A DNA stretch of 64,000 bases from a virus. The translations under genes were made by a program, and so were the position numbers. Shown here piece by piece: positions 36,446 to 64,000 of this stretch (position 1 is its first letter; each line of letters opens with the position of its first letter). The notes under the pieces are model-generated. The model saw only the letters and a program-made list of their open reading frames with translations. It did not search any database and was not told the origin of the DNA. Where the stretch lies: positions 37,269-101,268 of IMG/VR virus record IMGVR_UViG_3300000101_000008; one strand, written 5' to 3'.

Positions 36446-38533
36446 ATGCAGAATTTAGACACAACAGCAGAAGAACTATTTAATAAGATACGTGGACGCT
36501 TTCCAAGTATTACTATAGGTGATGCTGAAGGTAACGTAACTAACGAACCTAAACTAGGTAGATACTTTGATTTTGACTTTGTAAATGAAGGTCGTCCAAT
36601 TGGTAAAGTTAGTGTAAGTCTAGATGAAAAGAATGTGGCAGTAGTATACGGTGGCGACTTAGTTGCTACTGAATCAGATATAGCAAAAAAAGGCTGGTAC
36701 GATTTCTTAAAAGAACTACGCATGTTTGCAAGAAAACGAACACTAGAATTTGACACAAGAGACATAACAAAATCTAATTTAGATCAAAGAGATTACAAAT
36801 TTTTGGCAAAGAATCGTGACGGGGATAACGGAATGAACGAATCAAAATTATATGGCACATCAAGACAGTCTTATCAAGACTTTGATGGAGCACGTTTAAT
36901 GATCAAACATACAGAAGGTGTTGATCAAGAAGCAAGCGCAGGACGCACAAGAAAAATTGGTGCAATATATGTTGAAAGCTCAGAAGGTGAAAGATTTAAA
37001 TATCCTTTCAAACACCTTACTGGTGCAAGAGCAATGGCAAGACACGTATCAGAAGGCGGAGTACCGCATGATGATTTTGGTAAGCATATTGTAAGTATGT
37101 CAGAAGAAATGAACAAACTACGTAAGTTTAAATCTTATATGGGACGTTCAGCAGTAATGGCAGAAAGCCTAGCAGAGTATGTAGATGTTGTTAAACAACG
37201 TGTAGGTACAATTAAGAAAACATTAGAATCATTACAAAAGCCATCATACTATAAAGAAACATTTGAAGCATTTGAAACCCCCGTACTTGAAGATGTTCCT
37301 ACTGATGTTGCTGAAAATTGGATTGATCAACTTACTATTAAACAGTTCAATGAAGAGCTTGCAGATGTATTCCCCTACATTTACAAATTAGTAAGCGAAG
37401 CAAACAAAGCAGAAGAACTAGGACCTTTAGATTTACAAGGATATACTGTTCACGAAGTAGCAGGGCCAAAAGATTGTTGGGACGGTTATAAGAAAGACGG
37501 TACACAGGCTGGAACAGGTAAGAACAAAGGCAAGCGTGTAAACAAGTGTGTTCCGGAAGATGCTGAACTAGAGCAAGGCTTTGAAGAAATGATGGGCCAG
37601 TTTGCTGAAGGCGAAACCAACGAAGAAGTTGAAGTTTCAGATGAGATGAGAAGCCAAATATCAGATTGGATTGATAAATTCTCCAAGTACAAAGGCGGTA
37701 ACGGAGATACATTACCAGAAGGTTATATGCAGTGGGCATTAAACTCGGGTATTGCTACAGACTTTTTTGAAGAAAATGAAGTAGATGCATTTAACAAAAA
37801 GAAAGGTTACGATGCTGATAGCCAAACTGAAGAATGGACCGATGAAGACCACGATGATTTTACAGATAACACATCAGGTGCAAGTCCAATTACAAGTGCG
37901 TGTCTAAAAATGCTTAATAAAATTACAGGCGATGATTTCATTGAAGACAATGCTCATATTATTGACGCAGTAATGCACGGTGACGGTAACGAATCAACTA
38001 ACGAAGCACAAGAAGGCCAAGTAGGAACTATGACACTGTTTGTTACTGATCAAGATGGCGGCGAACACGAAGCAGAAGTTCAAGTTAAAATTGTAAATGG
38101 TAAGCCAGAGATTGATCCTAATACATTACCTGGACCAGAAGACCAACTTTATTGGGACGAAGCTGACATTGAACAACAAGCAATGGATGCAATGAAAAAC
38201 GGCGATATTGAATTTGATGAAGGCGACAACGACACTATGGACGTTAAGATAGACAAAGACGGAGCTATTAGCAAAGACGGCGGCACTGACGAAAAAGAGC
38301 AAAAGACACCATTAGGCGAGTTCATACTATCTTACTACGATAAAGAAGAAGGTGCATTTCCAAAAGGCGAAACAGCAGTACTAACAATGGTAGAAAAAGA
38401 TTACGGTGAACAGTATATCAATCCAGCAAAAGCATTTATTGAAAGTGTATATGAAATGACGGAAAGATACAAACAGGCAGAAGATACGAATCCACAAATG
38501 GATAGAATGAAAGAATTAGCCGGTCTAAGATAG
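36446..38533 (+). CDS. Large acidic late protein (probable head/internal protein)
   Basis: Start ATG at 36446, 5 nt after TAAATA (36435-36440); CWDGY...KRVNKCVPE module, acidic inserts, C-terminal RMKELAGL. Confidence 0.6.
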   Translation: MQNLDTTAEELFNKIRGRFPSITIGDAEGNVTNEPKLGRYFDFDFVNEGRPIGKVSVSLDEKNVAVVYGGDLVATESDIAKKGWYDFLKELRMFARKRTLEFDTRDITKSNLDQRDYKFLAKNRDGDNGMNESKLYGTSRQSYQDFDGARLMIKHTEGVDQEASAGRTRKIGAIYVESSEGERFKYPFKHLTGARAMARHVSEGGVPHDDFGKHIVSMSEEMNKLRKFKSYMGRSAVMAESLAEYVDVVKQRVGTIKKTLESLQKPSYYKETFEAFETPVLEDVPTDVAENWIDQLTIKQFNEELADVFPYIYKLVSEANKAEELGPLDLQGYTVHEVAGPKDCWDGYKKDGTQAGTGKNKGKRVNKCVPEDAELEQGFEEMMGQFAEGETNEEVEVSDEMRSQISDWIDKFSKYKGGNGDTLPEGYMQWALNSGIATDFFEENEVDAFNKKKGYDADSQTEEWTDEDHDDFTDNTSGASPITSACLKMLNKITGDDFIEDNAHIIDAVMHGDGNESTNEAQEGQVGTMTLFVTDQDGGEHEAEVQVKIVNGKPEIDPNTLPGPEDQLYWDEADIEQQAMDAMKNGDIEFDEGDNDTMDVKIDKDGAISKDGGTDEKEQKTPLGEFILSYYDKEEGAFPKGETAVLTMVEKDYGEQYINPAKAFIESVYEMTERYKQAEDTNPQMDRMKELAGLR

Positions 38534-50606: not shown

Positions 50607-51839
50607 ATGGAAACATTAGAAGATTGCATAGAACATCTTGTCGGAATACAGTCAAGAGAAACAGATAAGTTTGATATAGATAGTAGCGACTATAACTTAC
50701 TTACTAGCCTCGCCCGCCAGACCTTCAAAGGCACAGCATATACAGATAGGCAAGCAGAACTTGCTAAACAAAAACTGTTGCAATATAAAGATCAGTTTGA
50801 TGCTAACGGATATAACATTGATGATTCTTATAGTAATTTAAGAATGCCGTTACGTTCAATAGACAGAAGTCGTTGGGTTAAAGTATTTGACGAAGAACAT
50901 TTAATTTCAGATGAAGAAGGACCTTGGATAGGTGTAAGATTTATTTTTCAAAAGAAACTAATAACTGCTATTGAAAGAATGAATAAGTTTCTAGGCGAAG
51001 GCTTATACGACAAAGTAGAAAAGATACACTACTTTAAATTTAATGAAAACACATGCTACGAAATAATTAATACATTTAATGAAAACAACAACTTTGAAGT
51101 TGAGGATCAGTTACTAGAATATTATGAGAAGTTATTAGAAATGAAAAAAAATCAAGACAAATACGTACCGGGAATATATTCGTTTAAACTAAAAAATTTA
51201 CATGAGAAAAGTTTTAACTTTGCTATTAGCAGTATAGGTGAACCTAATATAGATAACCTATGTAACTATTACGACAAAAAAGATCAGTTTGGATTAGAAC
51301 ATTTTGATCAAGAAGAGTTACAACAAAGTTTAAAATCATTAACTCCGCTTGCACAAAAAGTAGTAAACAGAAGTCAAGCAAGTATATTTGTAAACAATAA
51401 AGAACACACTGTTAACAATCTTGCTGAAGTAGTATTAGAGTTATATAGATTTCCGTTAGTTATTGTACTACATGAAGATACTTGCTACGATCATTTAACA
51501 CAATTTAATAAGGCCTTTCAAAATATTATACCTAGCGAACGCATGTCTGTAATGTTTAGATTAGATAATACTCCAGAAGGAAAACCGTTTAACGAATACA
51601 TTAAACAACACAATATTAATAATGTGGTTGACAAAGACACAAAAATAGTGTATATTAGTAGTAATAAAATACCGAAACCACTTTTAAAAAGTGAATGGTT
51701 TCCTAGCGCGGCTATAACAACATTTGCTGGAAAAGCATATGGTGATGCAAAAACTAGTACATACATAGGAGAATTAGATTTGATAATACATTATGACAAT
51801 CAGCTTAGTCCTTTTATGAGAAAAATTGAGACGATATAA
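50607..51839 (+). CDS. Hypothetical protein upstream of uvsW
   Basis: 410-aa ORF with its own promoter, abutting uvsW. Confidence 0.7.
   Translation: METLEDCIEHLVGIQSRETDKFDIDSSDYNLLTSLARQTFKGTAYTDRQAELAKQKLLQYKDQFDANGYNIDDSYSNLRMPLRSIDRSRWVKVFDEEHLISDEEGPWIGVRFIFQKKLITAIERMNKFLGEGLYDKVEKIHYFKFNENTCYEIINTFNENNNFEVEDQLLEYYEKLLEMKKNQDKYVPGIYSFKLKNLHEKSFNFAISSIGEPNIDNLCNYYDKKDQFGLEHFDQEELQQSLKSLTPLAQKVVNRSQASIFVNNKEHTVNNLAEVVLELYRFPLVIVLHEDTCYDHLTQFNKAFQNIIPSERMSVMFRLDNTPEGKPFNEYIKQHNINNVVDKDTKIVYISSNKIPKPLLKSEWFPSAAITTFAGKAYGDAKTSTYIGELDLIIHYDNQLSPFMRKIETI
51628..51656 (+). promoter_or_regulatory. Internal sigma70-type promoter TTGACA-N17-TATATT for uvsW
   Basis: Consensus -35 and 17-nt spacer about 180 nt upstream of uvsW, inside the preceding ORF. 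Confidence 0.55.
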
Positions 51840-53303
51840 ATGGCAACATGTAGACTAATTATTGAAGATGAAGTAAACATTAAACTAGAAGGACTAGAAG
51901 TTGACGTACGAAGGAAGCTCGCGAATGCTCTCAAGTTTGAAGTGCCTTACGCAAAGTACATGCCACAATATAAACTTGGTCGCTGGGATGGAAAAGTTGC
52001 TTTCTTTGGCATTGGCGGTACTGGTTATGTCAATCATCTTGACGTTGTTAGTCAAGTTCTACAAAAGAATAATGTTGAAATAATAGATATTCAAGACAAT
52101 AGACATCCTATACAATTAGACTTTACGCCAGTAACAGAACGTTATTGGGCTGATCAAAATGTACGTTGGCCAAAAGGTCATCCAGCAGAAGGCGAAGAGA
52201 TTATTCTACGTGACTATCAAGTAGAGTCAATTAATAACTTTTTAAAACATCCACAGAGCTTGCAACAGATTGCTACTGGTGCAGGTAAAACAATTACTAC
52301 AGCAACACTTTCACATATAACTGAGCCGTATGGACGTAGTCTTATTATTGTGCCTAACAAGAGTCTTGTTACACAAACGGAGGAAGACTACATTAACTGC
52401 GGACTCGATGCTGGGGTGTACTTCGGCGACAGAAAAGAGTTAGGTAAGACTCACACTATTTGCACTTGGCAGAGTTTGAATATACTCGACAAGAAGCACA
52501 AGGACGGAACAGCAGTATTATCATTAGCTGAGTTCTTAGATGGTGTAAGCACTATTATTGTCGACGAAGTACACCAGGCTAAAGCAGAAGTACTAAAGAA
52601 TTTACTTACACGTAATTTAAAGAACGCTCCAATACGTTGGGGACTAACAGGAACAATACCAAGAGAGAAGTTTGAATTTGAAAGTATTCATGCTAGTCTA
52701 GGTCCTGTGATTGGACAAATTAGTGCTAAAGAACTGCAAGACAAAGGTGTACTATCACAATGTCATGTTAATGTAGTTCAACTATTAGATGTAGTAGCAC
52801 ACAGTAACTATCAAGAAGAATTAAAATATCTAACAACAAATCAGGCAAGACTAGAATATATAGGCAAATTATTAAGCACAGTAAAAGAATCAGGAAACAC
52901 ACTTATACTTGTAGATAGAATTAGTGCTGGAGAAATACTTCAACAACTAATACCAGGTAGTGTGTTTGTAAAGGGCGATGTAAAATTAAAAGATCGCAAG
53001 GAAGCATATGATGAAATCAATCAAGGAACTAACCACGTGGTTATCGCAACATATGGGGTCGCGGCTGTGGGTATTAACATACCGCGTATTTTTAATTTGG
53101 TTCTTATTGAGCCTGGCAAAAGTTTTGTCCGGGTAATTCAAAGTATTGGTAGAGGCGTAAGAAAGGCAAAGGACAAGGACTTTGTGCAAATTTGGGATAT
53201 CACGTCATCGTGCAAATTTGCAAAGAGACATTTAACACAACGTAAAAAATTCTATAAGGAAGCAGAGTATCCATTCACTATAGAAAAAGTAGACTGGAAC
53301 TAA
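51840..53303 (+). CDS. uvsW: SF2 DNA helicase UvsW
   Basis: LRDYQ, ATGAGKT, IVDEVH, GLTGT, GINIP, QSIGRGVR. Confidence 0.92.
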   Translation: MATCRLIIEDEVNIKLEGLEVDVRRKLANALKFEVPYAKYMPQYKLGRWDGKVAFFGIGGTGYVNHLDVVSQVLQKNNVEIIDIQDNRHPIQLDFTPVTERYWADQNVRWPKGHPAEGEEIILRDYQVESINNFLKHPQSLQQIATGAGKTITTATLSHITEPYGRSLIIVPNKSLVTQTEEDYINCGLDAGVYFGDRKELGKTHTICTWQSLNILDKKHKDGTAVLSLAEFLDGVSTIIVDEVHQAKAEVLKNLLTRNLKNAPIRWGLTGTIPREKFEFESIHASLGPVIGQISAKELQDKGVLSQCHVNVVQLLDVVAHSNYQEELKYLTTNQARLEYIGKLLSTVKESGNTLILVDRISAGEILQQLIPGSVFVKGDVKLKDRKEAYDEINQGTNHVVIATYGVAAVGINIPRIFNLVLIEPGKSFVRVIQSIGRGVRKAKDKDFVQIWDITSSCKFAKRHLTQRKKFYKEAEYPFTIEKVDWN

Positions 53304-53824: not shown

Positions 53825-54181
53825 ATGAAAGCAGGAAAGATTTGGGGTCAGACAGAATTGATCCACGCTAACGGTGTACTAGAGTTTCACCGCATTGAAT
53901 ACAAAGCAGGTTACAAGTGTTCTGAACACGAACATCAATATAAATGGAATGGCTTTTTTGTAGAGTCAGGAAAAATGATTGTACGTGTTTGGCAAGAAGA
54001 CCAAGGACTAGTTGATGAAACTATTCTTGGCCCTGGTGACTTTACACAAGTAAGGCCAGGAAAAATTCACCAGTTTGAAGGTTTAGAAGATGGTGTCGCT
54101 TTTGAACTATACTGGGCTGAATTCAATCACGATGACATTGTTCGTCGAACATCTGGCACCGCAACAGGAAAGAAGAAATAG
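53825..54181 (+). CDS. Cupin-fold protein
   Basis: KIWG, CSEHEHQYKWNGFFVESG, PGKIHQFE; AAGGAG RBS. Confidence 0.8.
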   Translation: MKAGKIWGQTELIHANGVLEFHRIEYKAGYKCSEHEHQYKWNGFFVESGKMIVRVWQEDQGLVDETILGPGDFTQVRPGKIHQFEGLEDGVAFELYWAEFNHDDIVRRTSGTATGKKK

Positions 54182-54182
54182 A

Positions 54183-54791
54183 ATGTTTAAAAACATCGAT
54201 GTAAAGATGATGCTAAAACTTGCGCTGTTGCAAGTTGTAGTCATCACAGTAAGTAACGCACTAGTTGCGATTCCAGTAGAGATTGCTGGATTTAAATTAA
54301 CTTGGGCGGCATTTACGTTCCCATTAGTTATTCTAGCAACTGACTTAACAGTACGTTTGTTAGGTAAGAACATTGCTAGAGCAACTATTGCCGCGGCATA
54401 TCCAATTGCAATTATCACAAGTATTGCAGTAGTATTAGCAGAAGGTGCACCAGAGAGTGTAGCAATGCGTATTGGATTTGCATCAGCAACAGCATATGCT
54501 GTAGGTACGTTTATTGACGTATATGTATTCCAAGCAATTAGAGAGCGTATGAATGTTTGGTGGTTAGCACCTGCATTATCAACTATTGTTGCAAACGTAA
54601 TTGATAGTTACACGTTCTTTGCAGTTGCATTCAACAACAGCGCCGATGAGTATATGGCCGCTAACTGGATGGAAATTGCAGGCTCACAGGCTGTACTAAA
54701 AATTGCAGTAGGCTTAATATTATTCCTACCAGCATATGGCTTATTGTTACGTTACCTAAAAGGTAAAATGAGTGATACTGAAGCAGGTTAA
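54183..54791 (+). CDS. yhhQ: Queuosine-precursor (preQ0/preQ1) transporter, YhhQ/VUT family
   Basis: Multi-pass membrane protein with SNALV, TWAAFTFP, ATDLTVR, RIGFAS, DVYVF, WWLAP, IDSYTFF, LPAYG; start ATG at 54183. Confidence 0.85.
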   Translation: MFKNIDVKMMLKLALLQVVVITVSNALVAIPVEIAGFKLTWAAFTFPLVILATDLTVRLLGKNIARATIAAAYPIAIITSIAVVLAEGAPESVAMRIGFASATAYAVGTFIDVYVFQAIRERMNVWWLAPALSTIVANVIDSYTFFAVAFNNSADEYMAANWMEIAGSQAVLKIAVGLILFLPAYGLLLRYLKGKMSDTEAG

Positions 54792-55333
54792 TGTATAGCA
54801 ATAGCTACATAAAACAACTCCAAAGCCTACATGCTGATGCTAGTCGTCAATTGGGCTTTGGAGGCAAAGCAAAAAAGTTAGGTAAGTTTCATTCGTTTAT
54901 GGACAAATGGCAACCTAGCTCTTTGCTTGACTATGGTTGCGGCAAGGGTCGTATACTTGCAGACTTAAGAGATAGATATCCTAATGTAGTCTGTGAAGGT
55001 TACGATCCTGCTGTACCTATGTTTAATAAAGATAAGTTTAGCACATATGATTGTGTATTTTCAAATGATGTACTAGAACACATTGAACCAGAATTTATTA
55101 GCCAAGTATTAGGACATATTAACACACTTGCATCTAAATACATTTGGCTACGCATTGATACAGTGCCTGCAAGAAAAAGACTATCAGACGGGCGCAATGC
55201 ACATTTAATACTTGAAGGTGAACAGTGGTGGCTAGATAAAATTAAAGACCACACTGACATCAAAGTAGTATATTCTAACTTAGATAGAAAAGGAAAACTA
55301 GACATTGCAGGAACAAAAAATGATACCAGGTGA
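54791..55333 (+). CDS. Class I SAM-dependent methyltransferase
   Basis: LLDYGCGKG, GYDPAV, DVLEHI, RNAHL. Confidence 0.85.
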   Translation: MYSNSYIKQLQSLHADASRQLGFGGKAKKLGKFHSFMDKWQPSSLLDYGCGKGRILADLRDRYPNVVCEGYDPAVPMFNKDKFSTYDCVFSNDVLEHIEPEFISQVLGHINTLASKYIWLRIDTVPARKRLSDGRNAHLILEGEQWWLDKIKDHTDIKVVYSNLDRKGKLDIAGTKNDTR

Positions 55334-55595
55334 AGCATTACTATACGAACGTTACGACGGTGTAGTATATGCAAAGTATAGAGATGCTCCTCATAATAAA
55401 ATACCTCGTTGGATTATAGGCGGAGATCCTGCAGGTGTAGCAAGAGCGCAAGGCGACATGTTGTACTATGCAGAGTGGCAAGAGTTGTGTGAGTTAGCAG
55501 AGGAGTACCCCACAATAAAAAAGCTCTTAGACAAGTTGGTAACAACTTACTATACAGTAAAGGAAGCACGTAATGGACAAAACAATATATCATGA
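55320..55595 (+). CDS. Hypothetical protein
   Basis: MIPGEALLYERYDGVVYA...; coupled to its neighbours. Confidence 0.55.
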   Translation: MIPGEALLYERYDGVVYAKYRDAPHNKIPRWIIGGDPAGVARAQGDMLYYAEWQELCELAEEYPTIKKLLDKLVTTYYTVKEARNGQNNIS

Positions 55596-56193
55596 ACAGA
55601 TAGCAGATCAATTATTTTGTGATCGACTGTATAACCCAAGCAGAGAGATTGCTCGAGATGTAGTTCTCTTTTGGCAAGATTATTTAAAAGAGAACGAAAC
55701 TAAACCTCGTTGGATGGACTTCGCTGACGGTAGTGACAGTACAAAAATATATGAAGCATACAACATATTTTTAAATCATCGCCCAGGCATTACTACATTG
55801 TATCAAAAGATTGTAGAAAGTTTTAAAACAAAAGTTGACAACCCACAGAAGTACGCTATTGCGGGATGGGTTAATGTATATGAAGGCGGTGGCTTTTTAG
55901 ACTGGCATACACACGGCGTTGGTCAAGGAGGATACTTTGATGGACGATGGCACGGTTACTTTTGTGTAAACGGTGAGCCAAGTAAAACAATGTATAGAGA
56001 TAATGAAACGCATCAACTTGTACAATCAGTAGAAAATAAAAACGGTTGGCTTACAATGAGTCCTGGGGGAATGGAACATAGAGTTACTCCTTGGGAAAAT
56101 GAAGAAAAGCCACGTATTACTATTGCATTTGATATTGCGTTAAGAAACGGAATTAGTCCCGGCAATTACAATCATTGGATACCAATTATATAA
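55573..56193 (+). CDS. 2OG-Fe(II) oxygenase-like protein
   Basis: WVN, WHTH, HRV, RITIAF motifs. Confidence 0.75.
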   Translation: MDKTIYHEQIADQLFCDRLYNPSREIARDVVLFWQDYLKENETKPRWMDFADGSDSTKIYEAYNIFLNHRPGITTLYQKIVESFKTKVDNPQKYAIAGWVNVYEGGGFLDWHTHGVGQGGYFDGRWHGYFCVNGEPSKTMYRDNETHQLVQSVENKNGWLTMSPGGMEHRVTPWENEEKPRITIAFDIALRNGISPGNYNHWIPII

Positions 56194-56196
56194 TAT

Positions 56197-56349
56197 ATGA
56201 ATAACACTAGAAACTGTAGTACTTGTAACAAACCAATAGACCTGTATGCTATAAAGTATCATACAGCTGATAAACAAAATGTATTTTGCAATGCATACTG
56301 TTCAAACGAATGGTATCAAAAGAAGAAGGAAAACAATCATGAGACATAA
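56197..56349 (+). CDS. 50-aa Cys4 metal-binding (TRASH/YHS-like) protein, absent from the ORF track
   Basis: MNNTRNCSTCNKPIDLYAIKYHTADKQNVFCNAYCSNEWYQKKKENNHET*; fills the gap between flanking genes. Confidence 0.6.
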   Translation: MNNTRNCSTCNKPIDLYAIKYHTADKQNVFCNAYCSNEWYQKKKENNHET

Positions 56350-56563
56350 AATAGCAGGAGTACTATTCTTATTATTAGGAATATATTTTTTAATTCAAGA
56401 TATGATGCCATTGTCAATGGGCTTTGGTGCGGCAATGGAACACAACATGCCAGCACACAACAATACATTATTAGGCATTAGCGAAATGACTTGGATGTGG
56501 TTTACAATGGCACTAGTACATTTCTTTATACGTGATTGTAATTGCAAGGAGTGTAACAAGTGA
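56339..56563 (+). CDS. Small two-helix membrane protein
   Basis: MRHKIAGVLFLLLGIYFLI...EMTWMWFTMALVHF; AAGGA RBS before ATG 56339. Confidence 0.55.
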   Translation: MRHKIAGVLFLLLGIYFLIQDMMPLSMGFGAAMEHNMPAHNNTLLGISEMTWMWFTMALVHFFIRDCNCKECNK

Positions 56564-57339
56564 GAATTATAGCAGGACCTTGTCAACACGAATCGTTGCC
56601 ACAAAGTTTAGAGATTGCTAAAGAGTGTAAACGTGTATGCGACAAGTATGGTATTGAGTATTACTTCAAAGCAAGTTACGACAAAGCCAATCGTTCAAGC
56701 GAAAGTGGTATTCGTGGTCTAGGATTAGAAACAACGCTACTAGACTTCCTAGCACTTAAAGTAGAGCTAGGTGTAAAGACACTAACTGACGTACACGACT
56801 ATGTACAAGTTGCACGTATTGAACGAGAATTTAGAGATGCAGTTGATGTCTATCAGATACCTGCATTCTTGTGTAGACAGACTGACTTGATCAAAGCGGC
56901 TTGTGCTACAGATAAAATTGTTAATATTAAAAAAGGTCAGTTTATGGCACCTTGGGATATGAAAGGTGTGCTAAGTAAAACTGAAGAAGCAAAAGAAGTT
57001 TGGATTACTGAAAGGGGAACTAGTTTTGGCTATAACAATCTTGTCGTTGACTATACTGGTCTTATGTATATGCTCGACAATTATGAACATGATGTTATTT
57101 TTGATTGTACGCACTCTGCCCAAAAACCCGGAGGACAAGGTACTAGCTCAGGTGGCAATCGTAATTACGTGCCTGGGTTGGCTCGTAGCGGGAGTGCTCT
57201 TGGGGTCCGGAATTTTTTCTTGGAAGTCCATCCTAACCCTGATGTAGCACCAAGCGATGGTCCTAATATGCTACGCTTACAAGACTTTGAACAAGTAGTA
57301 AAAGATATTGTAGCATACAGTTATGGTTGGTATGAATGA
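56560..57339 (+). CDS. kdsA: 3-deoxy-D-manno-octulosonate 8-phosphate (Kdo8P) synthase
   Basis: IAGPC, KASYDKANRS, QIPAFLCRQTDL, NIKKGQF, ERGTSFGY, DCTHS, SDGPN. Confidence 0.95.
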   Translation: MRIIAGPCQHESLPQSLEIAKECKRVCDKYGIEYYFKASYDKANRSSESGIRGLGLETTLLDFLALKVELGVKTLTDVHDYVQVARIEREFRDAVDVYQIPAFLCRQTDLIKAACATDKIVNIKKGQFMAPWDMKGVLSKTEEAKEVWITERGTSFGYNNLVVDYTGLMYMLDNYEHDVIFDCTHSAQKPGGQGTSSGGNRNYVPGLARSGSALGVRNFFLEVHPNPDVAPSDGPNMLRLQDFEQVVKDIVAYSYGWYE

Positions 57340-58016
57340 AAACTGCAATACTAATTCCTGCACGTTACGGTAGCACACGCTTACCTGGAAAGCCATTGTG
57401 TATGTTAGATGGTGTGCCTATGATAAAACGTGTGTATGACGCTTGTATTGCGTCTAAGATACCAACATACGTGCTTACTGATGATCCACGCATTGCTAGT
57501 GTATTTCAAAACACAAGTGTTATTATAGATGACACAGACTATGCAAATGGCACTGAAAGATGTGCAGGTGCAATCAAACTAGACTATATGCAGAAGTATA
57601 ATAAGTTTATAAATGTACAAGGTGATATGCCTGATGTAACATTGCAGATGATAGAACGCTGTGTAGAATGGTTACAATATTATCCTGTTAGTACAGTGTT
57701 TACAAACATGCCCGAAGACAAACAAAACGATCCTAACTCAGTTAAGATGGTTAGAGCAGGTGATCAAGCATTGTGGTTTGGCAGAGGGATGACAGGTTAC
57801 GGAGAATGGCATTTAGGCGTTTATGGCTACAAACGCAACTCGCTAGAAATGTATCCTAACTTAATTGTAGAACGCGAAGAAGAAATTGAAAAACTGGAAC
57901 AGCTTCGGTGGCTCAAAAACGGTTGGCAAATTGGCTGTTCTAGTGTATACTATAATGGAGTAGAGATAAATTCACCAAAGGACATTGTTACATGGCATAT
58001 CAAGAATTCCCAGTAA
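57336..58016 (+). CDS. kdsB: CMP-Kdo synthetase
   Basis: IPARYGSTRLPGKPL, GTERC, INVQGD, HLGVYGY, EKLEQLR. Confidence 0.93.
   Translation: MKTAILIPARYGSTRLPGKPLCMLDGVPMIKRVYDACIASKIPTYVLTDDPRIASVFQNTSVIIDDTDYANGTERCAGAIKLDYMQKYNKFINVQGDMPDVTLQMIERCVEWLQYYPVSTVFTNMPEDKQNDPNSVKMVRAGDQALWFGRGMTGYGEWHLGVYGYKRNSLEMYPNLIVEREEEIEKLEQLRWLKNGWQIGCSSVYYNGVEINSPKDIVTWHIKNSQ
57923..57951 (+). promoter_or_regulatory. Sigma70-type promoter TTGGCA-N17-TATACT inside the kdsB 3' end
   Basis: Motif and spacing; upstream of the replication-accessory ORF at 57992. Confidence 0.5.
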
Positions 58017-59314: not shown

Positions 59315-59847
59315 TACAAGTAATAGAAAACTTTTTACCAGCAGACGAATTTAAAAAATTACGAGATGAATTATTGTCTCCTGAGTTCCCTTGGTACATT
59401 ACACCTGATGTAGCATTTGGACACAAAGACAATCAACCTCATGTAGAACGTTGTGATGATATTTACAACTGGCAACTTATACATAATTTTTATAATACAC
59501 CAGGAACAATGAGCGAAGCAATTAAACTTATGAATCCTGTACTTGAAACAATCAAAGCAAACGTACTACTACGCATTAAAGCAAACCTTACACCTAGAGC
59601 AGATGCAATAGTAGAACACGGTATGCATGTAGATGTAATGCCTCCGATTGACAATGTTACCACAGGTGTGTTATACTTAAACACAAACAACGGCTATACA
59701 GCATTTGAAGATGGACAACAAATACCTAGTATTGAAAATACATTTGTAACTTTTCCTTGTACGTGGAAACACACAGGTACAACTTGCACAGATGAAAAGT
59801 ATAGAGCGTTAATAAATTTTAACTACATAAAGGTTGACGATGCCTGA
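59311..59847 (+). CDS. 2OG-Fe(II) oxygenase
   Basis: RIKANL, HVD (HxD), YLNTNNGYT, HTG, RALINFNY. Confidence 0.82.
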   Translation: MIQVIENFLPADEFKKLRDELLSPEFPWYITPDVAFGHKDNQPHVERCDDIYNWQLIHNFYNTPGTMSEAIKLMNPVLETIKANVLLRIKANLTPRADAIVEHGMHVDVMPPIDNVTTGVLYLNTNNGYTAFEDGQQIPSIENTFVTFPCTWKHTGTTCTDEKYRALINFNYIKVDDA

Positions 59848-60406
59848 TATTGATATTGACTTTGCAGACAGAGATATTATCTTAACTAAGATACAACACC
59901 GTGTGGCAAAACTTAATACAGGTAAAAAGCACAACACAGGTGTGTATGTAACTGAGGTTCCACACAATCCTGTAGACAACTTGACTACAATAGAACACAA
60001 GACTGCGGAAGAACGCGGCTACTTTAAACTAGACTTTCTTAACGTAAGCATATACAAAGATGTTAAGAACGAACAACACTTAATAGATCTAATGAAGAAA
60101 GAACCAATATGGCAACTACTGGAACACAAGGACTTCGTCGACAAAGTATTTCATCTAAGCGGGCACGACAGTCTGTTAAAGCAATTGAAGCCTACTTCGG
60201 TTGTGCAATTGGCGGCTACACTGGCAATCATACGTCCGGCCAAGAAATACCTAGCAAACGAAAGTTGGGAAAAGATACACGAAGAAGTTTGGCAAAAGCC
60301 GACTAATGGTGAATACTTTTTTAAGAAAGCACACGCATACGCCTACGCACAAAGTGTTGTGGTTCATATGAATCTATTATGTGAGATGCTTGAAAGCGAA
60401 TCTTAA
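59840..60406 (+). CDS. Minimal DnaE (Pol III alpha, family C) palm/fingers-like protein
   Basis: PDIDIDF, KHNTGVYV, GYFKLDFLNV, LAIIRPA and FKKAHAYAYA are collinear with DnaE motifs PDxDxDF, HAxGV, KxDxL, RPG and FNKSH-x-x-AY. Confidence 0.8.
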   Translation: MPDIDIDFADRDIILTKIQHRVAKLNTGKKHNTGVYVTEVPHNPVDNLTTIEHKTAEERGYFKLDFLNVSIYKDVKNEQHLIDLMKKEPIWQLLEHKDFVDKVFHLSGHDSLLKQLKPTSVVQLAATLAIIRPAKKYLANESWEKIHEEVWQKPTNGEYFFKKAHAYAYAQSVVVHMNLLCEMLESES

Positions 60407-61946: not shown

Positions 61947-62930
61947 ATGAGTGTAGTAAACGATACAGTTCTGACATACTTGCCGTCTAAGCGGAAACAA
62001 ACGCCTAGTGGCTGGATATCTTTTAATGCTACGTGTTGCCATCACAATGGTCACGCCGCAGACACTCGAGGACGTGGTGGCTTAATAAGCAACCCAGATG
62101 GAGGCGTAAGTTATCATTGCTTTAACTGCGGCTTCAAAGCATCCTGGCAACCGGGCAGGTCTTTCTCACATAAACTGCGTAAACTTCTCCAATGGATGGG
62201 AGCGCCTGATGACGTAGTCAACAAGGTGGCATTAGAAGTGATGAGAGAGAATGAAGGTGTTGAAGCAAAAACGTTAATAGCGCAACTGCCGACATTCAAT
62301 ACTGTTCCGTTGCCAGATGATGCGATTAAGATAACAGACATAACAGACTTCAACAAGTACAGCATGGCAGTACTTGAATACATGGCCGCTCGTGGATTAA
62401 ACACAGATGACACAAACTATTACTGGAGCCCCAGCTTAGGGTATCGTGATAGATTGATCATACCCTTCTACTTTGAAGGTAGGGTAGTAGGTTGGACTGG
62501 TCGTAGTGTCAACCCAGACAAGAAGCCCAAGTACTTAACTGAGGTACAACCTGGATACGTATACGGACTAGACGAACAGGGCTATGCTAAATCCTTTGCT
62601 ATATTGTGTGAGGGTCAGATAGACGCTATACACATACAAGGTACAGCACTGGGTGGGTCAGAGATAAATGACCAACAGTCTATGCTACTCAACAGATTGC
62701 AGAAGCAAATCATAGTATGCCCTGACAGAGATAAAGCAGGGTCCAAACTTGTAGAGCAAGCAATCGACCTAGGGTGGAGTGTAAGTATGCCCGAATGGAC
62801 AGAAGACATCTGTGATATAGGCGAAGCAGTAGAACGCTATGGTAGACTGTATACATTGTACAGCATAGCAAATACAGCAGAAGATAGCCCACTTAAAATA
62901 AGACTTAGAGCAAAGAAATGGTTTGCCTAA
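61947..62930 (+). CDS. gp61: DNA primase (T4 gp61 / DnaG-like)
   Basis: Zn-binding CCHH...YHCFNCG, RLIIPF, GWTGR, PKYL, TOPRIM CEGQIDA and PDRD. Confidence 0.9.
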   Translation: MSVVNDTVLTYLPSKRKQTPSGWISFNATCCHHNGHAADTRGRGGLISNPDGGVSYHCFNCGFKASWQPGRSFSHKLRKLLQWMGAPDDVVNKVALEVMRENEGVEAKTLIAQLPTFNTVPLPDDAIKITDITDFNKYSMAVLEYMAARGLNTDDTNYYWSPSLGYRDRLIIPFYFEGRVVGWTGRSVNPDKKPKYLTEVQPGYVYGLDEQGYAKSFAILCEGQIDAIHIQGTALGGSEINDQQSMLLNRLQKQIIVCPDRDKAGSKLVEQAIDLGWSVSMPEWTEDICDIGEAVERYGRLYTLYSIANTAEDSPLKIRLRAKKWFA

Positions 62931-62972: not shown

Positions 62973-64000
62973 ATGACAACAAGACAAAACACAGACTATG
63001 GTTATGATATACAGAAAGTATATCTAGAGATGATGCTATCGGACGCTGAGAGCTTTGTACGCTGTCAGGCAGTATTTGATCCAGATAGTTTTGACAGAAG
63101 ACTAAAAGCACCAGCAGAGTTTCTTAACAATTATGTTAGTGAACACAATGCATTGCCTACACTTGATATGATCAATGCGGCAACTGATGTTAAATTAAAA
63201 GACGTAGGCGAACTACAAGAGAATCATTATGATTGGTTACTTGCAGAGTTTGAAACGTTTAGTAAACACAAAGCACTAGAGGCGGCGATCTTAAAGAGTG
63301 CTGACTTACTAGAGAATGGTGACTATGGACAGTGTGAAGACTTGGTCAAGAAGGCTGTACAGATTGGCTTACAAAAAGACTTGGGTACAAACTACTGGGC
63401 AGATCCAAGAGCAAGACTAGAAGGCATCAAGAGTACAAACGGACAGGTAAGCACAGGTTGGCCAGCTATGGACAAGAAATTGTTTGGTGGCTTCAACAGA
63501 GGCGAGCTTAACATCTTTGCAGGTGGTTCGGGTGCAGGTAAGAGTTTGTTCTTAGCAAACATTGGTGTTAACATGGCCGAGAAAGGTCTTAACGTGATCT
63601 ACTTGACACTAGAGCTTGCAGAGAGTCTAGTTAGTATGAGACTTGATAGTATGACCACAGGCATTCCAAGTCGTGATGTGTTTAAGAGCATTGACGATGT
63701 TGAAATGAAAGTTAAGATGATTGGCAAGAAGAGCGGTAAGTTCCAAGTCAAGTATATGCCTAGTGGTAAGACAGCAAATGATGTACGTAGTTACATTAAA
63801 GAGTATGAGATTAAAACAGGTACTAAGGTAGACTGTTTGTTGATTGACTACTTAGACTTGTTGATGCCAGCAAGCACAAAGGTAAGTGCAGAGAACTTGT
63901 TTGTCAAAGACAAGTACGTAAGTGAAGAACTACGTAACCTAGCAATGGAATTGAACACAGTGTTTGTTACAGCGGCACAGTTGAATCGTGGTGCTGTTGA
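62973..64000 (+). CDS. gp41: Replicative DnaB-like helicase (T4 gp41), 3'-truncated; absent from the ORF track
   Basis: Manual translation: MTTRQNTDYGYDIQKVYL...STGWPAMDKKLFGGFNRGELNIFAGGSGAGKSLFL...YLTLEL...LIDYLDL...TAAQLNRG. Confidence 0.92.
   Translation, partial: MTTRQNTDYGYDIQKVYLEMMLSDAESFVRCQAVFDPDSFDRRLKAPAEFLNNYVSEHNALPTLDMINAATDVKLKDVGELQENHYDWLLAEFETFSKHKALEAAILKSADLLENGDYGQCEDLVKKAVQIGLQKDLGTNYWADPRARLEGIKSTNGQVSTGWPAMDKKLFGGFNRGELNIFAGGSGAGKSLFLANIGVNMAEKGLNVIYLTLELAESLVSMRLDSMTTGIPSRDVFKSIDDVEMKVKMIGKKSGKFQVKYMPSGKTANDVRSYIKEYEIKTGTKVDCLLIDYLDLLMPASTKVSAENLFVKDKYVSEELRNLAMELNTVFVTAAQLNRGAV

Follow-up and report, generated by a model that had tools for sequence, protein, structure and literature searches.

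Does a viral protein of fewer than 200 residues that carries the active-site motifs of the bacterial replicase family act as a polymerase, and if so, with what help? This question is raised by an intact open reading frame (ORF) in a stretch of 64,000 nucleotides from an uncultured marine virus lineage (positions 37,269 to 101,268 of the IMG/VR record IMGVR_UViG_3300000101_000008; hereafter the window, in which all coordinates below are given). The ORF lies at 59840-60406 on the plus strand, starts with ATG, ends with TAA and encodes 188 amino acids (aa). The explanation that best accounts for the data, and in which we have considerable confidence, is that it encodes the C-terminal unit (hereafter the C-half) of a split minimal DNA polymerase III alpha subunit (Pol III alpha), a putative accessory DNA polymerase of the group 2.2 (distantly T4-like) jumbo phages. 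The C-half is a member of that split system, which was already described from sequence in 2021; the window thus adds one more member of a known family and not a new system. The source record is a 101-kilobase (kb) fragment, ~29% complete as estimated by CheckV, which breaks off 3.6 kb past the downstream end of the C-half gene.

Examination of the protein confirmed that the motifs PDIDIDF, HNTGV, KLDFL, IRPA and FKKAHAYAY, which a first-pass annotation of this DNA had picked out, are all present and follow one another in the order in which they occur in DnaE (Table 1). Only 22 residues separate PDIDIDF from HNTGV (that annotation had estimated about 25), at the point where the cellular enzymes insert the thumb. 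As the protein begins at the DxDxD strand, it lacks the N-terminal PHP domain of cellular Pol III alpha; the thumb, the helix-hairpin-helix (HhH) and OB domains and the GRGS motif are likewise missing from the 188 residues, as had been recognized in the first reading.

In the PHROGs collection the C-half is matched end to end by phrog_11778 ('DNA polymerase', 197 positions; E = 4e-59) and also by phrog_405, a full-length DnaE-type profile (E = 1e-7). Pfam yielded nothing beyond a sub-threshold match to DNA_pol3_finger (E = 0.019), a single-sequence phmmer search of the PDB recovered no match, and neither did megablast of the locus against GenBank phages. A family profile was required to reach the cellular enzymes: one constructed from 69 diverse homologues matches the Pol III alpha structures of Escherichia coli, Thermus aquaticus and Mycobacterium tuberculosis in the PDB, with 2hnh as the best (E = 1.4e-5). 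The hidden Markov model (HMM) alignment to the E. coli subunit places K63 and D65 on KFDFLGL, R132-P133 of the IIRPA motif on ALFRPG, and the K162/H165 motif on FNKSHSAAYAL.

The AlphaFold (AF2) model of the C-half is compact, with a mean predicted local distance difference test (pLDDT) of 95.9 and a predicted template modeling score (pTM) of 0.88, and the top 15 matches recovered with it by Foldseek are all Pol III alpha. VIA-align superposed 182 of its residues on M. tuberculosis DnaE1 (5lew, residues 419-808; Z 10.0, root-mean-square deviation 3.6) and returned Z 9.9 for the Taq enzyme, Z 9.2 for E. coli (2hnh, residues 400-781) and Z 9.6 for PolC (3f2b), against Z 3.3 for the best unrelated chain; across these DnaE/PolC structures the superposition, at Z 9-10, takes in 180-185 of the 188 residues. 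The 188 residues map to ~380 residues of the cellular enzymes, with ~200 residues of insertions gone. Given that residue 1 corresponds to E. coli residue 400 in the structural alignment and residue 52 to E. coli residue 539 in the HMM alignment, the segment that joins the DxD strand to the one bearing the third aspartate is shorter by ~89 residues, and the E. coli domain boundaries drawn by Lamers et al. in 2006 reportedly put the thumb in this very stretch. Relative to the E. coli subunit, the interval from RPG to FNKSH is likewise reduced, by a further ~87 residues. The C-terminus corresponds to E. coli ~781, and everything beyond, including the clamp-binding/HhH region and the OB domain, is gone. 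Thus, the C-half is a homologue of the Pol III alpha catalytic core, extending from the DxD strand through a template-binding stub of the fingers.

Such a protein, with less than one-fifth the length of cellular DnaE and a Pfam match to the fingers that stays under the threshold, could also be viewed as the decaying remnant of a full-length phage or host DnaE. Its relatives present a very different picture. More than 543 loci in IMG/VR encode them, and all 80 that were examined, at 68-85% identity, preserve the ORF intact with a length of ~186-191 aa; it starts at the same MPD in 76 loci and has LPD at that position in the other four. In a large protein collection the C-half family makes up at least 7,993 clusters when grouped at 90% identity. 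At the 50% level there are 421 representatives, of which nearly all that are full-length measure 185-215 aa. The exact sequence occurs on 99 contigs, and near-identical DNA is found in seawater metagenomes from ~10 studies. The ratio of nonsynonymous to synonymous substitution rates (dN/dS), a check that had been proposed in the first-pass annotation, points to purifying selection (~0.12-0.14, or ~0.13 overall): it is ~0.12 in pairs with the window copy and 0.14 among the 791 pairs with unsaturated dS, with a maximum of 0.24. D3, D5, D7, K63, D65, R132 and P133 are invariant in the 69 sequences, down to 31% identity, and D3, D5, D7 and D65 are also invariant in 77 close relatives, so that the Mg2+-binding acidic residues are retained throughout. 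As the ORFs are intact, dN/dS is low and the catalytic residues do not vary, and with a compact, high-confidence model in addition, decay is excluded; we reject the pseudogene or remnant reading as having a negligible chance of being correct, and the original description of a miniature, thumb-less, split polymerase that is not decayed holds.

If the C-half is one part of a divided enzyme, then the remaining part of the palm, with its GRGSS element, should be encoded elsewhere, as the first-pass annotation had anticipated in the form of a separate small ORF with G-x-GRGSS. We scanned eight complete phage genomes that bear the C-half with PF07733, namely those of Ettore (PA5oct-like, on Pseudomonas), Turkey3 (121Q-like, on Escherichia), BF (on Serratia), RaK2, SCTP-2, Slicko01 (on Alishewanella), Atu_ph07 and XacN1. 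Each has exactly one further match above the cut-off, covering profile positions ~16-98. Such an N-terminal unit (hereafter the N-half) was hence found in every complete relative scanned and also in G002, a 237-kb IMG/VR relative whose C-half is 73% identical to that of the window, which amounts to nine of the nine genomes long enough for the scan. Reading of the frames in Ettore, Turkey3, BF and G002 showed N-half ORFs of ~170-185 aa that contain W-G-(V/L)-GRGSS and end in ...EFL(R/K), sometimes with one more residue. This terminus falls precisely where the MPDIDIDF of the C-half takes over in the DnaE sequence. The same holds in IMG/VR, where each of 80 N-half loci has an intact ORF that terminates in ...EFLR, with one extra residue in four of them. 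The N-half family is phrog_11127 in PHROGs. On the phrog_405 profile ~148 positions lie between the last one matched by the N-half and the first one matched by the C-half, as against ~52 residues here, leaving ~96 profile positions unmatched between the two.

The distance between the two genes ranges from 11 to 183 kb. The shortest, ~11 kb, is seen in the Alishewanella phage vB_AspM_Slicko01, which carries both halves in a genome of 141,431 bases, below the 200-kb jumbo threshold; the split mini-Pol III is therefore not confined to jumbo genomes. An intein- or intron-split gene was considered and rejected, with the halves this far apart and no intein sequence at the junction.

Since the split lies exactly between ...EFL(R/K) and MPDIDIDF, neither half holds a whole active site and the two would have to associate. 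Co-folding of the cognate G002 pair with alignments as input, another check suggested at the outset, gave an interface score (ipSAE) of 0.92 (0.92-0.93 in three runs) versus 0.01 for the best control; of 80 solved complexes, 58 attain that mark, as do 2 of 110 mismatched pairs. The runs share at least 96% of their contacts, with a partner pLDDT of at least 80. In the model, residues 2-9 of the C-half (the DxDxD strand) pack on residues 146-159 of the N-half (the strand and GRGSS loop of the WGVGRGSS segment), which is the arrangement expected, and here predicted, for a nucleotidyltransferase core of the Pol-beta fold. The high score may reflect likeness to solved Pol III alpha structures; it shows that the halves can rebuild the known palm, which falls short of demonstrating binding in the cell. 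Modelled by itself with AF2, the N-half is too poorly folded for a fold search (pLDDT 55), which is weakly consistent with dependence on a partner and may equally reflect a shallow alignment.

A natural fusion bears on the same point: the 375-aa metagenome protein P0228 (from ENA) joins an N-half part with GRGSS to a C-half part with DFDID in DnaE order, over a linker of ~10 residues, and matches PF07733 across the junction (E = 4.8e-16). This hints that the split is reversible. The C-half might instead work by itself, serving the replisome as a scaffold without catalysis or binding DNA or metal, given that it folds confidently alone in the AF2 model and that the N-half gene is so distant and did not turn up on the contig of the window. 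We consider this very unlikely, because the halves co-occur in all nine genomes, the split site is fixed, the co-fold is strong relative to its controls, a fused form exists, and the invariance of all three aspartates argues for catalysis.

The search for longer homologues of the C-half yielded only one other protein, P0274 (ENA, 425 aa, on a 1,405-base contig). It has a C-half without the first ~45 residues, and hence without the DxDxD strand, preceded by ~280 unrelated residues with reverse-transcriptase-like motifs; an assembly chimera is probable, though insertion of a mobile element could also have produced it.

Consistent with the earlier expectation of a family-B polymerase alongside, ORFs of 825-1,013 aa encoding one were found in G002 and three phage relatives. 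We also looked for the remaining parts of an ordinary Pol III, the possibility that further ORFs supply the thumb and other domains having been raised in the first-pass annotation as one that would overturn its reading. In five complete relatives PHP (PF02811) and HHH_6 (PF14579) have no match and finger-domain matches lie solely within the C-half itself; as no PHP or HhH is detectable there, an ordinary Pol III is not reconstituted, and its assembly from further ORFs was rejected as a candidate.

The C-half gene is embedded in a conserved replication block (Table 1). Its order is a phrog_11279 protein, a clamp-loader-small-subunit-like protein, a C2H2-type zinc finger, the C-half and a convergent ORF of ~120-130 aa, followed by an ORF of ~260-320 aa, the primase and then the helicase; whole or in part, it is conserved in Ettore, Turkey3, BF, RaK2, Atu_ph07, SCTP-2 and Slicko01. 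In the PA5oct-like phage Ettore the zinc-finger companion directly precedes the C-half. In the window a 178-aa ORF intervenes, whose stop is overlapped by the ATG of the C-half by 8 nucleotides, and the coupling to this upstream neighbour that had been proposed stands as regards the overlap and fails as regards a conserved partner. Neither the 178-aa ORF nor a 63-aa ORF before it has a counterpart at that position in eight phage relatives, and 59840 is the exact point at which metagenome contigs from relatives part from the window, which makes the overlap a lineage-specific accident of insertion. The 178-aa ORF matches phrog_274 (E = 4e-47), to which PHROGs gives the label 'DNA endonuclease V'; Pfam gave no match.

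Further auxiliary genes have been inserted in the replication block of this lineage at 54090-58016, where the flanking replication genes are adjacent in Ettore. A DnaQ/epsilon-like exonuclease is annotated in or near the same module in Turkey3, BF and XacN1; the 410-aa positional equivalent in the window (50607-51839) has no match in PHROGs or Pfam.

Table 1. Coordinates in the window of the C-half gene, its motifs and the neighbouring genes
Feature	Coordinates	Strand	Remarks
UvsW-like helicase	51840-53303		
Vut_1/YhhQ-type transporter	54090-54791		
Methyltransferase-like ORF	54791-55333		
2OG-Fe(II) oxygenase-like ORF	55573-56193		
DAHP/KDO-8-P-synthase-family gene	56560-57339		
CMP-KDO-synthetase-type cytidylyltransferase	57336-58016		
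C2H2-like zinc-finger protein, 249 aa	58377-59126	+	phrog_11058; conserved upstream companion
Upstream neighbour, 178 aa	59311-59847	+	phrog_274; lineage-specific insertion; stop overlaps C-half start
Probable C-terminal (Mg2+- and template-binding) unit of split minimal Pol III alpha, 188 aa	59840-60406	+	ORF, phrog_11778, PDB profile, fold match
PDIDIDF motif, residues 2-8	59843-59863	+	D3, D5, D7 invariant; they include two metal-binding palm aspartates
HNTGV motif, residues 31-35	59930-59944	+	Palm strand; H31, G34 at least 90% conserved
FKLDFL motif, residues 62-67	60023-60040	+	K63 and third catalytic aspartate D65, both invariant
IIRPA fingers motif, residues 130-134	60227-60241	+	R132, P133 invariant
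FKKAHAYAYA fingers motif, residues 161-170	60320-60349	+	K162, H165, A170 at least 90% conserved
Convergent ORF, 104 aa	60403-60717	-	Stop overlaps C-half stop; no PHROG or Pfam match; no counterpart in eight phage relatives
Conserved convergent ORF, 131 aa	60727-61122	-	phrog_11637; follows the C-half in distant relatives
ORF of the conserved block, 264 aa	61117-61911	+	Ettore and Atu_ph07 have weak homologues in this place
DNA primase (T4 gp61-like)	61947-62930	+	phrog_47, E = 9e-40; synteny
DnaB/gp41-like replicative helicase	62973-63998	+	phrog_19, E = 1e-58; cut by window end

In light of these observations, we propose that the two proteins would together form one active site. The C-half would supply the strand with the two metal-binding aspartates D3 and D5, the strand on which the third, D65, adjoins K63, and a cut-down fingers region with R132-P133, K162 and H165. 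The strand-GRGSS-helix element of Pol III alpha binds the triphosphate of the incoming nucleotide, and this remainder of the Pol-beta-like nucleotidyltransferase core would come from the separate ~185-aa gene tens to hundreds of kb distant. The R-P and K-x-x-H residues in the fingers of Pol III alpha contact the incoming dNTP and the template, and templated synthesis is favoured because both motifs are retained. With no thumb and no clamp-binding region, processivity would be poor. The heterodimer would most likely be a short-patch, low-processivity DNA polymerase working beside the family-B replicase. The primase and DnaB genes at the end of the block suggest a role in lagging-strand synthesis or primer extension, or in repair.

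A more specific and decidedly tentative idea, which we think less probable than its contrary, is that the heterodimer is an active, thumb-less, minimal C-family polymerase with a dedicated job in the replisome beside the family-B replicase. It could, for example, extend the primers made by the primase before hand-off, in the manner of Pol alpha or of Bacillus subtilis DnaE beside PolC. B. subtilis DnaE beside PolC and eukaryotic Pol alpha beside Pol delta/epsilon are each a second, less processive polymerase linked to priming.

The two-piece enzyme might alternatively be some other nucleotidyltransferase of the Pol-beta fold and not a templated polymerase, acting in template-independent tailing, protein- or primer-directed transfer, DNA modification, second-messenger synthesis or counter-defence, several of which had been entertained in the first-pass annotation. 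The absence of a thumb, a clamp-binding region and an OB domain would fit such a role, as would the family-B polymerase by which replication is already covered in the relatives, and the gene is flanked here by oxygenase-like ORFs, a methyltransferase and KDO-pathway genes. These flanking genes are, however, lineage-specific insertions, and genes for defence or modification are not among the conserved neighbours. What is conserved next to the C-half in very distant phages is the primase, DnaB, the clamp-loader-like protein and the UvsW-like helicase, and the fingers motifs specific to family C (R132-P133, K162 and H165) are invariant or nearly so. Accordingly, this alternative appears improbable; the more exotic functions found no support, and the conserved primase/DnaB block points to replication.

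Several observations nevertheless weigh against an accessory templated polymerase in this phage. In the 101-kb record of the window the N-half was recovered neither by a motif regular expression nor by tblastn with three phage N-halves, and searches with PF07733 and PF00136 gave no match; the sole GRGS match there lies inside a 593-aa frame that does not match the N-half queries. A tblastn search of the same record with the family-B polymerase of G002 also gave no match. As the record is so incomplete, non-detection in it is no evidence of absence, and it is from the relatives that we infer an N-half and a family-B polymerase for this phage. Templated DNA synthesis by the enzyme is itself read from conserved residues. 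The fusion protein P0228 is a single sequence on one 2,415-base metagenome contig, and a search of IMG/VR for the fused form found none. RNA libraries contain contigs that match parts of the C-half gene at 99-100% identity, which weakly indicates transcription, given that such libraries can include DNA and that the contigs carry no expression level. A literature search turned up no paper on the system after 2021 and no bench test or biochemical activity for any member. We know of no characterized family-C precedent for a polymerase without a thumb or a clamp-binding region.

Members of the C-half family are very numerous in marine metagenomes, and many jumbo phages in culture have conserved it (PA5oct, RaK2, 121Q-like, CBB/BF, Atu_ph07, XacN1 and SCTP-2). 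Were the enzyme active, it would place a minimal catalytic core of the bacterial replicase family inside a replisome based on a family-B polymerase, and would bear on both the evolution of the C-family polymerases and the division of labour in phage replication. If the proposal of a dedicated replisome polymerase is true, then the enzyme would rank as the smallest C-family polymerase that works, and would offer a tractable model of the ancestral catalytic core of the bacterial replicase.

Comparison with the known enzymes helps define the system. With DnaE (2hnh, T. aquaticus 2hpi/3e0d and 5lew) and PolC (3f2b) the C-half shares the Pol-beta-like palm fold and the aspartate triad, K-x-D, R-P and K-x-x-H motifs in the same order. 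Unlike them, it lacks the thumb and part of the fingers (the ~200 residues of insertions), and there is no PHP domain, rest of the fingers, clamp-binding/HhH region, OB domain or C-terminal domain. Where those enzymes are single chains, the palm here is split over two polypeptides, with the GS motif on a separate protein in the relatives. The likeness to B. subtilis DnaE and Pol alpha is a functional analogy only, resting on the location of the phage gene in a block that ends with a primase and a helicase.

The closest counterpart is the split minimal Pol III alpha that Iyer, Anantharaman, Krishnan, Burroughs and Aravind described in 2021 from group 2.2 jumbo phages, including Atu_ph07 (Viruses 13:63, PMC7824862, section 3.4.1 and Fig. 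3b). They noted that it accompanies a family-B polymerase and proposed that it synthesizes one strand or acts in repair. The window copy belongs to a marine lineage not in culture, shares 49-50% identity with the PA5oct-like phages, and is set apart by the auxiliary genes in its replication block and by an N-half that lies off the contig. In all other respects the correspondence is close: the C-half has the palm strand with DxDxD, the third aspartate, a stub of the fingers and nothing else; a separate, distant N-terminal NTP-binding unit with the GS motif is seen in the relatives; and the relatives carry a family-B polymerase with a T4-like primase and helicase, while the window has the primase, DnaB and a UvsW-like helicase. 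Named members of group 2.2, such as Atu_ph07, carry homologues of both halves, and nothing essential differs between the system described there and the one to which the C-half of the window belongs.

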